Source of the DNA: a virus | Reading direction: 5' to 3' (one strand) | Virus record (IMG/VR): IMGVR_UViG_3300044946_000078 | Span: 11,625 to 75,624 of that record | Length of the DNA: 64,000 nt | In this document: in pieces, positions 5,139-60,751 of the stretch | How the letters are laid out: each line of letters begins with the position of its first letter | Numbering within the stretch: position 1 is the stretch's first letter | Position numbers and translations under genes: made by a program | The notes under the pieces: model-generated | What the model saw: only the letters and a program-made list of their open reading frames with translations | Database searches by the model: none | What the model was told of the DNA's origin: nothing

Positions 5139-5692
5139 ATTCATATTATATGGGACTAAATACTTATGAACTTGTTGACGATTCCTACTCCTCCATACAG
5201 CATGTATTTGATACATGTGAGGCAGAATCAATTGAAAGTGCGAAAGATATTTTCCGTGAACGTGGATGGGGAATAACCACCGAAAATGTAAGGCTTCAGC
5301 CAGATCAGGAATAACCATTAAACTAACTACTTATGGAACACGATAAAAAACTATTGGATGCCGCCGATCATTTCATGGAAAATGATGAAACACTTGATAG
5401 ATTGGACCAAGAGAATAGATCTTTCAGCGCTGGTAAATACGGTTTTATGAGTGGGGCTGAATGGCAAAAAGAACAAGATAGTGATCTTCTTAAAGCACTA
5501 CAAGATTTATACGTGGTAGCTGCTCCTAAATTTACACATATTTTCGATGGTGTAAAAAGCGAACATCCAGTGCTTTTGCAAACAAGGGAATCCATTATAA
5601 AAGCAGGAGGTGCAATATGATGATCTTATCCATACTCGAATTAACTGGACTAGTTGCTGCTTGTATTCATTACTTAATTAAAAATATGAAGC

Positions 5693-11052: not shown

Positions 11053-11916
11053 TTAAGATTTTTGAAGATTATTTAAATAAGCCTGGGCGCTATTAACGCC
11101 AGATTGAAATAGAGCTTCTTTTTGCGCATCCGTAATGCCAAAGTCTGTTGCACTGATTCCCAAGTCGTCTATTACAATAGTTCTTTTCATGATTTCAGGA
11201 TTGGTTATAATATATTCATCTTGTGCGGAAAGAACGCAATCCAATACAGCGGCAGTGAATTTTGGTAAATTGCCGGTTTCTATTGGATAGTCACTTTTAC
11301 CGTTAACATCATAAAGAAAAAGTCCCAAGGTTTCAGATGGGTCACAAAAGTAGTCAAAAACGGTAATTGGATAATTATACATAGTCCCTCCATCTACATC
11401 TAATGTTTGCGGTTGGTCATAGGGATAAGATACGGGTTCAAAAAAGAAAGGAATACCCATTGAACTACGAACCCCCAGCGGAACTGAAACATTCGGGAAA
11501 TTACCGGCATCTAGTATCCTTGGTGCTCTTTTCCTTAAATTGGTGGAAACTACCGTAAGACCTAAAAATCCTTTATTCTGAAGATGCCCAAATGTTATAT
11601 CGCCCCCTGTTTTATCACTTACCACTTTTTGTAGCCATTCCAAAGCAAATTCACCCTTATAAAGGGAATCTTTTGTAAGTTCTCGCAAAGGATTAAAACC
11701 ATCCTCGAAGCTCTTAAAATCCAATGTATTTACAATATCATATATTTCAGCAGCCGTATATTTTAAGGCAACTAACATAGCTACAATTGATCCGGCAGAG
11801 GTTCCAGCCGTTCTTTGGAGCCCTTTTACGATACCTGCTTCTTCCAAAACTTTCAAAGCTCCTGCGTATGCTATTCCGAGGACTCCGCCTCCTTTCATTA
11901 CTAAATTCTTAATCAC
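11053..11916 (-). CDS. patatin-like phospholipase
   Basis: GGGVLG oxyanion loop, GTSAG nucleophile elbow, DGG catalytic motif. Confidence 0.9.
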   Translation of the reverse strand: MIKNLVMKGGGVLGIAYAGALKVLEEAGIVKGLQRTAGTSAGSIVAMLVALKYTAAEIYDIVNTLDFKSFEDGFNPLRELTKDSLYKGEFALEWLQKVVSDKTGGDITFGHLQNKGFLGLTVVSTNLRKRAPRILDAGNFPNVSVPLGVRSSMGIPFFFEPVSYPYDQPQTLDVDGGTMYNYPITVFDYFCDPSETLGLFLYDVNGKSDYPIETGNLPKFTAAVLDCVLSAQDEYIITNPEIMKRTIVIDDLGISATDFGITDAQKEALFQSGVNSAQAYLNNLQKS

Positions 11917-55046: not shown

Positions 55047-55460
55047 TCATGGTTTTTGTTTTAGTGATTCAAAGTAAAATATTCCAGAAAAGGGTTTCTC
55101 TGGTGTTATTCCAAAGGCGGAAGCAACTTTATTCATGTAGACTATTCGGTTCTTTGATTTTTCAACTTTTGGATTCTTTGGCAATTTCCCAAGACGAAAA
55201 TGGAAACTTTGCATGTATGACCTAAAGTATTTAAGATCCGAGGCTCGCTTGTAATGATTTACTATTTTAAGGGCTGGGACAAGATTTGATATATCATTTG
55301 CCTTTTTGTAGAACAAAGGATTATCTTCATGTACATAATCGACAAACATATATTTTGGAACAATGTGATCTACTTGCCAATCATCATCTAATGGCAATCC
55401 GGTATAAGCACACCTGCCGTCGAATTTGTCAAATATTATTTGTCTTTGTTTTTTTGTCAT
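55047..55460 (-). CDS. HNH endonuclease family protein
   Basis: GRCAYTG, WQVDHIVP, SNLVPA....NHYK (most Zn-binding Cys lost). Confidence 0.75.
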   Translation of the reverse strand: MTKKQRQIIFDKFDGRCAYTGLPLDDDWQVDHIVPKYMFVDYVHEDNPLFYKKANDISNLVPALKIVNHYKRASDLKYFRSYMQSFHFRLGKLPKNPKVEKSKNRIVYMNKVASAFGITPEKPFSGIFYFESLKQKP

Positions 55461-56611: not shown

Positions 56612-56659
56612 TAAATGTAAAAGTTTTATTTGTTAGTATCAAAATAATATCTAAATTTG
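56612..56659. promoter_or_regulatory. overlapping divergent Bacteroidota-type promoters
   Basis: + strand TTTG (56629-32) - 19 nt - TAAATTTG (56652-59); - strand TTTG (56640-43) - 20 nt - TACATTTA (56612-19); located at the strand switch. Confidence 0.7.
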
Positions 56660-56831: not shown

Positions 56832-57296
56832 ATGGAACAACCTATTTTAATACTCCCTAGTAATGCCTTAAAGGCTTACAACAATGCTAAAACACAAGAA
56901 GGAAAGGACTCTATTGCTCTTCTTTGTGGTGGATTGGATAAGATTCAATTAGACTGGAGTTCTGTGGTTGACTTGGAGTCTGCTTGCCGAATAACTGGTT
57001 CAGATCCTAAAGATCAAAGATTTCATATAGGAACTCCCAGTGCGCAGGCATTCGCCCAATTGGAAGAATGTATTAAGGCTATTAATGGAGTAGATTTTGT
57101 ATTTGATTATACAAATAAAAATCAACCAAAATGGTATATCGTCTGGGAATATTCGGGTTCGGGCTTCCGATTGATTTACGTCCACTACGGCTACAGCAAT
57201 TCGGGTGTCGGTTCGCGCCTTTCGTTTGAAACGCAAGAGAAAGCGAAGCACGCAGCAGAATATCTCATCAACTTATTCAATCAATTTTTAAAATAA
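56832..57296 (+). CDS. DGR target protein 1
   Basis: contains VR1 (SGSGFRLIYVHYGYSNSGVGSRL); paralogous to targets 2 and 3. Confidence 0.9.
   Translation: MEQPILILPSNALKAYNNAKTQEGKDSIALLCGGLDKIQLDWSSVVDLESACRITGSDPKDQRFHIGTPSAQAFAQLEECIKAINGVDFVFDYTNKNQPKWYIVWEYSGSGFRLIYVHYGYSNSGVGSRLSFETQEKAKHAAEYLINLFNQFLK
57152..57218 (+). repeat. DGR variable repeat VR1
   Basis: 67-nt ungapped match to TR 57702-57768; 10 mismatches, all at TR adenines. Confidence 0.95.
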
Positions 57297-57303
57297 CCAC
57301 AAA

Positions 57304-57675
57304 ATGCTATTTAAAACATTTGAGGCTTTATGTGAAAAAAGGGGGTATGATCCCGTAAAAATACTTCCCGATGTTTCTGGTATGTTGGAAAGGCTTAGGG
57401 CCCCTTTTATTGCGGAGGCCAAGTTGACAATGTTGATCGATGAAGTAAATGAAGGCAAAGAGGCGAATTGGGAGGATACTAACGAGCCAAAGTATATGTT
57501 GCTTTGGGATATGGAAGAAAGCGCTTCGGGTTCGGGCTTCCGCTTGGAGTACGTCGACGACGGCTACCGCATTTCGACTGTCAGTTCGCGCCTTACTTTT
57601 CGTAACACGAAAGGCGGCAAATTTTCCGCAAAACATCATTTCGATTTGTGGAAAATTTACATGAAAGGGAAATAG
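57304..57675 (+). CDS. DGR target protein 2
   Basis: contains VR2 (ASGSGFRLEYVDDGYRISTVSSRL). Confidence 0.9.
   Translation: MLFKTFEALCEKRGYDPVKILPDVSGMLERLRAPFIAEAKLTMLIDEVNEGKEANWEDTNEPKYMLLWDMEESASGSGFRLEYVDDGYRISTVSSRLTFRNTKGGKFSAKHHFDLWKIYMKGK
57521..57591 (+). repeat. DGR variable repeat VR2
   Basis: 71-nt ungapped match to TR 57698-57768; 11 mismatches at adenines plus one T>G. Confidence 0.95.
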
Positions 57676-57681
57676 ATCTTT

Positions 57682-57865
57682 AGGCTGTGTAATATTCGCG
57701 CTTCGGGTTCAGGCTTCCGATTGAATTACGTCAACAACAACTACAACAATTCGAATGTCAGTTCGCGCAATTTGTCCGTTTTATATTTAATATTACAAGC
57801 CTTGGCTCTTGCCAGAAAAATACATTCTCAAACGGAGCATTGGTAGCATTAGCGAAGATGGTCTA
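57682..57865 (+). ncRNA. putative DGR template RNA (TR plus structured flanks)
   Basis: 57682-57696 pairs with 57789-57802 around TR; TGGC-tctt-GCCA hairpin near 57803-57814; non-coding spacer before the RT ATG. Confidence 0.6.
57697..57768 (+). repeat. DGR template repeat (TR)
   Basis: intergenic, AAC/AAT-rich (reads RASGSGFRLNYVNNNYNNSNVSSR in VR frame), 19 adenines, directly upstream of the RT. Confidence 0.95.
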
Positions 57866-57878
57866 TATGGGCAAAAGC

Positions 57879-58946
57879 ATGAAAAGAATAGGTAAGTTAT
57901 ATGAAAAAATAATCAGCATTGACAATCTTACTTTGGCTGATCATAATGCCAGGACGGGTAAGGGTCGTCAATATGGTATAGTAAAACATGACCGGCATAG
58001 AGAAGAAAACATTCAACTACTTCATGAAATGCTTGTCAATAAGACATATCAAACATCAAAGTATACCACTTTCAAGGTTTATGAGCCAAAAGAAAGAACC
58101 GTATATCGATTGCCATACTTTCCGGATAGGATCATGCACCACGCTATTCTCAACTATCTAGAGCCTGTTTGGACCGCTTCTTTCGTCGCCGATACTTATT
58201 CCTGTATAAAAGGGCGCGGTATCCATAGCGCCGCCGAGAAGTTAAAGAGGGCGCTCAAAGACACTAATAATACAAAGTATTGCCTCAAATTGGATGTTCA
58301 AAAATTCTATCCGAGCATTGATAATGGCATTTTAAAGAAAATCATTCGCCGGAAGATAAAAGATAAGGACCTATTGTGGTTGTTAGATGAAATAATCGAC
58401 AGCGCCCAGGGATGCCCGATCGGGAATTATCTATCCCAATTTTTCGCAAATCTTTATCTATCTGGATTGGATCACTGGCTAAAGGAGGTCAAAAAGGTTA
58501 AATATTACTTTAGGTATTGTGACGATATGGTTATCCTCGGTGGCAATAAAGAAGAGCTTCACGCGTTATTTATTGAGATCAAGGAATATTTGGCAACGAA
58601 CCTAAAATTAATAGTCAAAAAGAATCATCAAGTCTTCCCGGTAGACGTACGAGGTATTGACTTCATTGGATTCGTATTTCGTAGTACACACGTTCGGTTA
58701 AGGAAAAGGATCAAACAAAACTTCGCTAGGGCTGTAAAGAAAAACAAGGAACAGTCAATAGCATCTTACATGGGTTGGGCTCTTTTTAGTGATAGCAAAA
58801 ATTTAGTCAATAAACTCTTACCCAACCATGAAAAGATTTTCAGAATTCAACATAAAGCCACAAGAAACAGAAGAAACGGGCTTTATTGGAGAAAAAATAA
58901 AGATCGAAAAGATATTGAACAGGGAAATAACGGTACTGGCTTATAA
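57879..58946 (+). CDS. DGR reverse transcriptase
   Basis: PKER...LPYFPDRIMHHA, LKLDVQKFYPSID, GCPIGNYLSQ, YFRYCDD (YxDD), GIDFIGF; no maturase or HNH domain; ATG 57879 preferred over TTG 57840. Confidence 0.95.
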   Translation: MKRIGKLYEKIISIDNLTLADHNARTGKGRQYGIVKHDRHREENIQLLHEMLVNKTYQTSKYTTFKVYEPKERTVYRLPYFPDRIMHHAILNYLEPVWTASFVADTYSCIKGRGIHSAAEKLKRALKDTNNTKYCLKLDVQKFYPSIDNGILKKIIRRKIKDKDLLWLLDEIIDSAQGCPIGNYLSQFFANLYLSGLDHWLKEVKKVKYYFRYCDDMVILGGNKEELHALFIEIKEYLATNLKLIVKKNHQVFPVDVRGIDFIGFVFRSTHVRLRKRIKQNFARAVKKNKEQSIASYMGWALFSDSKNLVNKLLPNHEKIFRIQHKATRNRRNGLYWRKNKDRKDIEQGNNGTGL

Positions 58947-59127
58947 ATTGGTTCCTTCTAAGTATAAGGACGAGTGTTTATATCTTAGCCTTCAGTTTAA
59001 TGATAAAAAGCATGTCCTGTTTACCGGATCTAAATTCCTTGCTGAAATGATTAAACGAGTTCCTGCCGATGGCTTCCCTTTTGTAACAATAATTCAGAAA
59101 GAAAACGAAAGATTCGAGTTTACATGA
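58828..59127 (+). CDS. 99-aa beta-rich protein overlapping the RT 3' end (candidate DGR accessory)
   Basis: ATG inside the RT gene, ATGA coupling to the next gene. Confidence 0.65.
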   Translation: MKRFSEFNIKPQETEETGFIGEKIKIEKILNREITVLAYKLVPSKYKDECLYLSLQFNDKKHVLFTGSKFLAEMIKRVPADGFPFVTIIQKENERFEFT

Positions 59128-59522
59128 GTACAGATCCTGAAATATTACGGCAACTACAAAAAGCTAGGGAGCCTAAGCCGCCCAAGGCTAAAAAGGCAAT
59201 AGCGAAGGTTTCCAAAAAGAAACAAGGCCAAATGATTCTTCAAAAGGTCTTGGCAGAATTAGATAAGGAGTTTTATTTAACCGTGTGGCATGCAAGCGCC
59301 CATGTATGTCAAAATTGTGGATGTGGGTTAGGGAATACTCCCAATAACATTTTCTTTCATCACCTTTGGGAAAAACGAAACTATCCACAATGGAGACATA
59401 GACCAGAAAATATAATGCTGTTATGTCTAACTTGTCATTCAAAGGCTGAAACTAATATTGACTTCGCTCCTGAAATAAAAAGGCGTAGAGAACAAGCTGA
59501 AACCGAACTTTTAAAACAATAA
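59124..59522 (+). CDS. HNH endonuclease family protein
   Basis: CQNC...FHHLWEK..YP..R...ENIMLLCLTCH. Confidence 0.7.
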   Translation: MSTDPEILRQLQKAREPKPPKAKKAIAKVSKKKQGQMILQKVLAELDKEFYLTVWHASAHVCQNCGCGLGNTPNNIFFHHLWEKRNYPQWRHRPENIMLLCLTCHSKAETNIDFAPEIKRRREQAETELLKQ

Positions 59523-59524
59523 TT

Positions 59525-59995
59525 ATGTCTCTTTTACTCGAAGAAAAAGATGCTTTACTGGCCCATAAAAATGGCACAAAATCTGATCAGGCTCTTTTGG
59601 AGCGGCTATATCCAGCTTTCTTTAATAGAAAGATTACGGATCGAATCCAGTGTCTTGATGATGTTTATTCCATTATGTCAGTCGATTTCGAGGGCCGTCT
59701 TAGGATATACAACCAAATTCCAGGTATAGACCACGTTATTGCTTTCGATCAAGCATGTCTTATCGTTCAGGCATACAATGAAGGATGGGTCCCAAATTGG
59801 GATGATAATAGCGAATATAAATGGTATGGCTATTGGGATCACCGCGCTTCGGGTTCGGGCTTCCGTTTGTCTTACGTCTCCGACATCTACGTCATTTCGA
59901 GTGTCGGTTCGCGCCTTGTCTTTAGAACGGAAGAACTAGCACGAGACGCGTACGAAAAATTTCCTCATATCTTTAAGTTGTTTATGACTTTTTAA
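59525..59995 (+). CDS. DGR target protein 3
   Basis: contains VR3 (RASGSGFRLSYVSDIYVISSVGSRL). Confidence 0.9.
   Translation: MSLLLEEKDALLAHKNGTKSDQALLERLYPAFFNRKITDRIQCLDDVYSIMSVDFEGRLRIYNQIPGIDHVIAFDQACLIVQAYNEGWVPNWDDNSEYKWYGYWDHRASGSGFRLSYVSDIYVISSVGSRLVFRTEELARDAYEKFPHIFKLFMTF
59843..59914 (+). repeat. DGR variable repeat VR3
   Basis: 72-nt ungapped match to TR; 13 mismatches, all at TR adenines. Confidence 0.95.
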
Positions 59996-60751
59996 TATGA
60001 ATCTCTCTAATTATAGATGGTATCGACGATGGTATGGAGGTTCATGGTATAAGGTTCGTTGGTGGAGTCGAACAAAAAATAAATGGGTCGTTGATTGGTA
60101 TATCTATTTTGATATGAACTGTCGTCCGTCAATATGTTTAAAAGAAGAACATTATTAAATAACTATATTCTTTATGCCATCTAAATTTGAACGAACTAAA
60201 TTGTGTGTATCTCCGTTAACAGGAACTGTTTATATAGCCGACATTTCTAAGAAGGACAAACATATGATGCTTGATACCCGAATAGAGGTTACTGAAAATG
60301 AATTTATGCACTGCATATTTGAATATTTGGAGGCAAAATATCCTGATACCATTTGCGAGGTAACAGTAAGGGGAAAGCCTGCAATGGAACTTAAACTTAT
60401 TAAGCAATGAAACAAGAAGATGTTTTTATGATCGTCTCGGTAAAAGATAAATTGCCTCCTAAGCATGCTATGTATAATTGTAGCACTGGGCGACGAGATT
60501 TGTTTGAAAAACTTGAATTTATCGATGACCATGATGAAGAACCGGGCTTTTATGATACTCACGGAAATAGAGTTGATGTATACTACTGGCTAGAAAAGAA
60601 GACCAACTTAATAACCTGCACTAAGGAAGACTTAGTAAAAGTCTTCTATGCTGGTCAAGATAAAGGACACGTAATGGAAAAAGGATTTGGTAATAGTACA
60701 ACACCAACATGCCAAGAGTATTTAGAATCTTTGGGAATAAAACTATAACTT

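Follow-up and report, generated by a model that had tools for sequence, protein, structure and literature searches.

An Avd-less diversity-generating retroelement of Bacteroidota phages and its tandem small target proteins

One template repeat and three small paralogous genes

We analysed a 64,000-nt stretch of viral DNA (positions 11,625 to 75,624 of IMG/VR record IMGVR_UViG_3300044946_000078; hereafter the window), which is part of a single 75,624-bp contig of soil metagenome origin and carries a diversity-generating retroelement (DGR) with one template repeat (TR), a reverse transcriptase (RT) and three small target genes, T1, T2 and T3, each containing one variable region (VR1 to VR3). The genes of the operon are tightly packed, with gaps of 2–8 nt or overlaps, and follow the order ribbon-helix-helix (RHH, Arc-like) gene, T1, T2, TR, RT, O99, HNH endonuclease gene and T3 (Table 1).

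Scanned without gaps on both strands, the window and the complete 75,624-bp genome yielded exactly three partners of the 72-nt TR, with 34 of the 35 mismatches at TR adenines: VR1 (10 mismatches) and VR3 (13 mismatches) depart from the TR at adenines only, and VR2 (12 mismatches) does so at 11 adenines and at T57726. The scan reproduced the counts given in a first-pass annotation of this DNA, which had also seen no copy of the TR in the tail genes; no VR beyond VR1–VR3 was found in the whole genome. The TR is placed between the T2 stop codon and the RT, with 98 nt separating it from the RT ATG; in the frame of the VRs it reads RASGSGFRLNYVNNNYNNSNVSSR. With seven AAY codons, two TAC codons and one AGT codon, it can encode 1.09e10 peptides, in line with the approximately 1e10 per target estimated earlier from the same codon count, and the products of 154, 123 and 156 residues, with 25–27 residues after each VR, likewise agree with the 123–156 residues and about 25 trailing residues first described. 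The 3' end of the TR is GTTCGCGCAAT, in place of which all three VRs carry GTTCGCGCCTT, and just after the shared GTTCGCGC the VRs read CTT where the TR reads AAT; by analogy, this resembles the difference between the initiation of mutagenic homing sequences IMH and IMH* of classical DGRs. DNA hairpins downstream of the VRs, of the kind that form the target-recognition element of Bordetella phage BPP-1, scored no better than shuffled sequences (z −0.3, −1.9 and +1.3).

The adenines of the two TAC tyrosine codons of the TR (57727–57729 and 57742–57744) are kept in VR1–VR3, and also in the variant of VR3 from an independent soil run described below, while the neighbouring AAY codons are heavily changed, a pattern which suggests selection for scaffold tyrosines.

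Table 1. Positions in the window of the retroelement cassette and of the features at its 5' side
Feature	Position	Strand	Supporting evidence
Bacteroidota-type promoter motif TTTG-N19-TAAATTTG (TTTG-N19-TAnnTTTG)	56629..56659	+	Motif match only
Ribbon-helix-helix (Arc/TraY-like) DNA-binding protein, 52 aa	56665..56823	+	PF05509 5.8e-5, PF03869 4e-4
Target T1, long type, 154 aa; VR1 57152–57218 (residues 107–129)	56832..57296	+	phrog_11581
Target T2, short type, 123 aa; VR2 57521–57591 (residues 73–96)	57304..57675	+	
Template repeat (TR), intergenic, 16 adenines at mutable positions	57697..57768	+	Ungapped scan
Structured spacer RNA between TR and RT	57798..57884	+	Rfam RF03020 (RT-17 RNA) match
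DGR-type RT, IGNYLSQ and YCDD; frame open from 57840	57867..58946	+	PF00078 4.5e-17, phrog_1423 4.7e-122
O99, 99 aa, basic (pI 8.7), predicted OB fold, overlaps RT 3' end	58828..59127	+	phrog_19665
HNH endonuclease, 132 aa	59124..59522	+	PF01844 1e-4
Target T3, long type, 156 aa; VR3 59843–59914 (residues 107–130)	59525..59995	+	

Variation of VR3 between samples

Public runs were compared as assembled contigs, in which variation can be read between samples only. X2, a soil run that belongs to a different study and is independent of the window sample, contains short contigs identical to the flanks of T1 and T3, and one contig was identical to window positions 59902–60030 and then continued on the VR3 side with 22 non-matching nt. 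This 22-nt segment differs from the TR at eight positions, all of them adenines, and from VR3 of the window at 10 of 22 positions; judged from these contigs, the same phage carries a differently rewritten VR3 in the two samples. Since the X2 segment departs from the TR at eight adenines only, within identical flanks, the DGR would appear to be active now or to have been so recently, and the DGR of the window phage is probably working.

Reverse transcriptase, spacer RNA and the O99 protein

The RT carries IGNYLSQ at residue 185 and YCDD at residue 217, which bears out the earlier recognition of a DGR from a YxDD RT beside the TR, and its best solved relative was 8ub7_A (328 aa, E 1.8e-45), which we take to be bRT of Bordetella phage BPP-1. 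The spacer between TR and RT matches the RT-17 RNA (RF03020) over its full length with 34.2 bits (E 5.7e-4), against a gathering score of 40.4 that it does not reach, and the corresponding region of a related locus from Elizabethkingia miricola (L123, positions 5500–5585), immediately upstream of the cassette RT, scores 43.5 bits, above the gathering threshold. Aligned across 44 diverse loci, the TR–RT spacers share a conserved structure consisting of a hairpin, an A-run and a longer stem enclosing a small, often GNRA-capped hairpin, and compensatory changes were present in 11 of the 12 consensus pairs. RT-17 was left unassigned among retrons, DGRs and other elements by Weinberg et al. 2017 (PMC5737381), in whose account RT-10 occupies the equivalent position, the TR–RT spacer, in BPP-1. 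Because the above-threshold match in L123 lies directly upstream of the RT, the orphan Rfam motif RT-17 can now be placed in the DGR class to which this cassette belongs.

The Avd accessory is found in about 74% of DGRs and is not universal. Pfam and PHROG searches of the window genes gave no Avd-like match within the cassette, where the RT is instead followed by O99, which is present in 54 of 72 RT-bearing loci from IMG/VR and 53 of 58 from GTDB and which had no match in Pfam or NCBIfam. The O99 model (pLDDT 89) has the topology E-E-E-H-E-E, a barrel of β1–3, a helix and β4–5, and almost all of its top 30 rows in a VIA structural search were oligonucleotide/oligosaccharide-binding (OB) domains of SSB, PriB, RPA or RuvBL (RuvBL2) proteins, with Z scores of 4.4–6.9 and rmsd values of 2.3–3 Å (about 2.5 Å) over ~65 residues. 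By the topology of its model and its superposition on solved OB folds, O99 is a predicted OB-fold protein, and we infer that, in place of Avd, it serves as the RT's nucleic-acid-binding partner. We found no open-access paper linking DGRs with an OB-fold accessory.

A cassette class of Bacteroidota phages

Relatives of the targets numbered 180 in IMG/VR and 116 in GTDB genomes, almost all of them from Bacteroidota, with GTDB hosts including Chryseobacterium, Dyadobacter, Pedobacter, Chitinophagaceae, Elizabethkingia, Tenacibaculum and Apibacter; relatives of ~155–160 aa formed 476 clusters at 50% identity (phmmer). Downstream of the target, at a distance of a few hundred bases, a closely related RT (E 1e-104 to 1e-147) is encoded in 71 of 79 kept loci from IMG/VR and 58 of 79 from GTDB. 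This widespread, self-contained class normally begins with a long target (~155 aa), followed by one of the short type (~125 aa), in some loci by a third target, and then by TR, RT and O99, so that the recurrent parts are the long and the short target, the TR, a covarying RT-17 spacer RNA and an RT followed by the OB-fold protein.

In the 115 phage and prophage loci, almost all from Bacteroidota, in which a TR was located between the last target and the RT (60-nt window), 234 of 241 unique VRs had at least five mismatches and at most one non-adenine mismatch, and the mismatches over 237 related TR–VR pairs totalled 2554 at adenine sites against 31 at others. The first-pass annotation had named VR differences without adenine bias across related genomes as evidence against DGR activity. 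The identification of the element as a DGR and its assignment to this cassette class are in our judgement close to certain. A search of the open-access literature found no paper describing a class of tandem-small-target cassettes with an RT-17 RNA and an OB-fold accessory.

Some members of the target family (L009, L074, L075, L095, L113 and others) have no RT within 5–6 kb. Two of these, L095 and L113, share a contig with a full cassette (L085 and L153) at a distance of ~9–11 kb and are possible remote targets; the other RT-less members may be undiversified relatives.

Target protein family, predicted fold and pairing

The targets of the window are partial matches to phrog_11581 (T3, 2.2e-10; T1, 1.8e-5; T2, 6e-3), to which two other family members (P0013 and P0022) match at about 1e-32. 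The motifs KITDRVKTFEDAC, NEGWVPDW, YKYYPWF and VGSRLCFKSEELA.YA flank the hypervariable stretch in the family. Searches of the targets against Pfam and NCBIfam, and of the family profile against PDB sequences, returned nothing, and in BFVD and the ESM Atlas the only matches were to unnamed phage or viral proteins or clusters. The proteins are small, soluble and slightly acidic, with an N-terminal domain that is helical in the model of T3, and neither a signal peptide nor a membrane segment was found in them (maximum Kyte-Doolittle value of 1.14 over 19-residue windows), as the first-pass annotation had stated.

The T3 model (pLDDT 86) comprises seven short helices (residues 7–85), a β-hairpin (99–118), a less confident loop (~119–130) and two C-terminal helices, and the VR coincides with the second hairpin strand and the loop. 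Foldseek found no credible match of this model in the PDB (best E 0.23), and the best Z score against 48,161 chains in VIA was 3.9; no C-type lectin (CLec) protein was among the VIA matches listed for the model, which does not by itself show the folds to be different. A long and a short target are fused into one polypeptide of 280–305 aa, with a VR-like stretch in each half, in P0029, P0035, P0036, P0038, P0047, P0057 and P0104, which suggests that the two paralogues work together; we infer that they form a long–short heterodimer.

Genomic context of the cassette

Gene maps of the loci, with PHROG annotation of recurrent neighbours, placed the cassette in several types of early module that are unrelated to one another: behind Mu-type transposase A/B and ATPase genes; among RecT, exonuclease and anti-repressor (Ant) genes; inside T7-like modules of exonuclease, gp2.5 SSB, DNA polymerase and primase-helicase; and beside primase, SbcCD-like, ParB, DnaB and methyltransferase genes. 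Across more than 150 related loci, the conserved neighbours of the cassette are genes of transposition, recombination, replication and regulation and never tail genes; structural genes start several genes away or, in Mu-like phages, lie on the other strand. One conserved N-terminal domain of the targets is shared by phages with unrelated virion modules, and a domain that moves with the cassette among unrelated virions is a poor fit to a virion-docking role.

The rest of the window is phage DNA that includes genes for a large terminase, portal, virion and tail proteins on the minus strand, and the terminase shares ~28% identity with its counterparts in podophages of Flavobacterium and Cellulophaga. 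The HNH gene and the Arc-like head of the operon, both recognised in the first-pass annotation, are backed by Pfam matches, and a promoter motif lies 5 nt upstream of the RHH start, the first ATG of the operon (2 matches in the window against 0.53 expected). Neither the HNH nor the RHH gene had a homologue in 158 related loci; the two genes are peculiar to the window phage and stand outside the conserved cassette. The HNH gene sits between O99 and T3 and overlaps O99 by ATGA. In another locus (L145) no HNH gene intervenes and a third target comes directly after O99; the HNH gene of the window looks like a recent homing-endonuclease insertion because it has no homologue in the 158 related cassettes. 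A second HNH-like open reading frame is present at 55047–55460 on the minus strand, and a small open reading frame just downstream of the cassette (60174–60410) matches DUF7446 (PF24233, 3.8e-6).

Homologues in cultured Bacteroides phages

A tblastn search of T3 against 50,697 phage records gave no match; with a more central family member, matches were obtained in the Bacteroides phages Versailles, LoVEphage, PV4-TP1 and BI-TP1. The homologue in these cultured phages is ~193 aa long. The Versailles protein (WAK79127.1; L160, 6001–6582) matches phrog_11581 as a whole (1.3e-78) and aligned with the family profile in hhalign at 99% probability (E 4.8e-18, 151 columns). Its gene sits between NinB and a replisome organiser, and that of LoVEphage lies among methyltransferase, PAPS reductase and RtcB genes. 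In Versailles and LoVEphage the DGR RT is encoded at another place in the genome, next to a tail protein; the VR of the small homologue differs from that distant TR by 6–7 mismatches, at adenines only; no counterpart of O99 was found after the Versailles RT. The LoVEphage RT (MW660583.1, 47903–48996; L163–L165) is split over three frames, and its remote target still shows adenine-only mismatches. The VR of these gut phages is of CLec type, matching the C-terminus of the tail-protein family phrog_5302, and for this reason the scaffold of the target family may be a strongly reduced derivative of a lectin.

Benler et al. 2021 (PMC8008677) described for Quimbyvirus an RT split over three frames and a second DGR target that is non-structural and nested among defence-related genes, for which they proposed a role in phage–host conflict. 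The Bacteroides dorei prophage of CP011531.1 can be aligned with LoVEphage as well as with Quimbyvirus, and this alignment, together with the shared three-frame split of the RT, leads us to equate the LoVEphage protein with that second target. The idea of a non-virion target is thus already published for one homologue and is not new here.

Proposed mechanism and alternative explanations

In the mechanism that we propose, an RNA containing the TR and the RT-17-type spacer would be copied by the RT, probably aided by O99 in place of Avd. Adenines would be copied unfaithfully, and the cDNA would replace the 72-nt segment in each of the three paralogous genes, randomising ~10 residues of the β-hairpin and loop and giving ~1e10 variants per gene. 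The targets would be encoded, and probably expressed, with early genes, usually as a long and short pair and in some genomes as one fused chain.

We favour the interpretation that the targets are non-virion proteins and not a receptor-binding tropism switch, with a probability of roughly 60% as judged from gene content and context; they would then most likely be cytoplasmic. The first-pass annotation, which had suggested intracellular binders instead of a tropism switch, gains comparative support on this point from the early-gene context in more than 150 loci and loses some from the tail TR shared in Versailles and LoVEphage. In the latter two phages one TR serves both the tail protein and the small homologue, and the small protein resembles the phrog_5302 C-terminus in its VR region; a receptor-related role of the small proteins keeps its standing because the TR and the VR match are shared with a tail protein. 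These observations weigh against our interpretation, as do the facts that gene position is no proof of absence from the virion, some decoration and adhesin genes lying outside structural modules, that the fold matches of O99 are middling (Z below 7), and that the X2 evidence comes from low-depth contigs (depth ~2) for one VR (VR3) in one sample. The shared TR and the VR match would suit virion-associated targets, that is, adhesins or decoration proteins assembled in trans, encoded outside the structural module and diversified for adsorption or surface adhesion, much as classical phage DGRs diversify receptor-binding proteins (PMC8144416, PMC5758913). GenBank also annotates the Versailles homologue as 'tail protein', a label that seems to derive only from the ~45-residue VR match to the phrog_5302 C-terminus, whereas the whole protein belongs with phrog_11581. 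Since, moreover, the cassette class is without any tail target, the window genome has no further VR, and the cassette with its conserved N-terminal domain is found among early, replication and transposition genes of phages with unrelated virions, we consider a virion location unlikely, if still deserving of attention.

Action outside the cell after lysis, as soluble lectin-like binders of debris, decoy receptors, environmental surfaces or neighbouring cells, would be in keeping with small, soluble proteins that have no anchoring domain, with the ligand binding typical of DGR variable proteins and with the soil origin of the phage; with no signal peptide found, and with a co-location among early genes that suggests a need during infection or lysogeny, this appears improbable. 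Still less credence is due to the view that the element is a fossil with historical TR/VR differences and a DGR no longer working in the window phage. The one non-adenine mismatch of VR2 and the insertion of the HNH gene inside the cassette could be read in this way, but the RT motifs, the TR with its 16 mutable adenines, the O99 gene and the RT-17-like RNA are all intact, and VR3 of X2 varies only at adenine sites, its flanks being otherwise identical.

As for what non-virion targets would do, they may act as hypervariable binders in phage–host or phage–phage conflict, a role to which we would give somewhat less than an even chance; inhibitors or decoys of defence proteins may be one of several possibilities. 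A more specific proposal, which we advance tentatively and consider rather doubtful, is that the randomised loops of the long and short proteins form one binding site, so that a dedicated Avd-less DGR made up of the RT, the OB-fold protein and the RT-17 RNA would maintain an antibody-Fv-like cytoplasmic repertoire against host defence or competing phages on a scaffold not recognisable as CLec in our models.

Significance

Present knowledge of phage DGRs is almost entirely about the C-type lectin scaffold and the tropism of tail fibres. The class described here is devoted in its entirety to small proteins of the early region, for whose predicted fold no solved structure gave a credible match, and it takes in hundreds of 50%-identity clusters from Bacteroidota phages of soil, aquatic and gut habitats. 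If the targets are indeed cytoplasmic binders, targeted hypermutation in phages would extend beyond adsorption into intracellular conflict, and the family would offer a compact natural scaffold for large binding-protein libraries. The assignment of RT-17 to a defined DGR class and the proposal of an OB-fold protein as an alternative to Avd provide mechanistic leads, and the role of the targets can be tested at the bench in cultured Bacteroides phages that carry homologues of them (Versailles, PV4-TP1, BI-TP1).

Comparison with known DGR systems

The window cassette shares with the BPP-1 DGR (mtd-avd-TR-brt) an RT with IGxxxSQ and YxDD motifs, an intergenic TR just upstream of the RT, a structured TR–RT spacer RNA, adenine-specific mutagenesis, AAY-dominated codons and IMH-like 3' ends. 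Its spacer RNA resembles RF03020 RT-17 in a full-length match directly upstream of the RT, the same place as RT-10 in BPP-1, although the window copy is below threshold. Unlike BPP-1, the cassette has no Avd and carries an OB-fold protein downstream of the RT instead; it has three small targets where BPP-1 has one tail-fibre protein, and its VR is 72 nt long against 134 nt, with ~25 residues following it. No solved CLec structure was among the matches listed for the target model, and the setting is one of early genes.

The Avd-less DGRs of Wu et al. 2018 (PMC5758913) are similar in being without avd, in having multiple targets and in their small, acidic, conserved flanking proteins with no recognisable motifs. 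O99 as an equivalent of CH1 of that study was ruled out, since O99 has 99 aa and is basic whereas CH1 has 160–169 aa and a pI of 4.7; the target family may correspond to CH1, or to the weakly supported 'Ig1' VR class of the same authors.

With Quimbyvirus/LoVEphage the likeness lies in the remote target, which belongs to the same family (phrog_11581), has adenine-only differences and is near methyltransferase and RtcB ligase genes. In these phages, unlike the window, the DGR adjoins a CLec tail protein as its primary target, the RT is split, O99 is missing, and only one copy of the small protein is present, remote from the DGR and bearing a longer VR of CLec type, whereas the cassette of the window class serves only small proteins, arranged in tandem pairs of a long and a short target.

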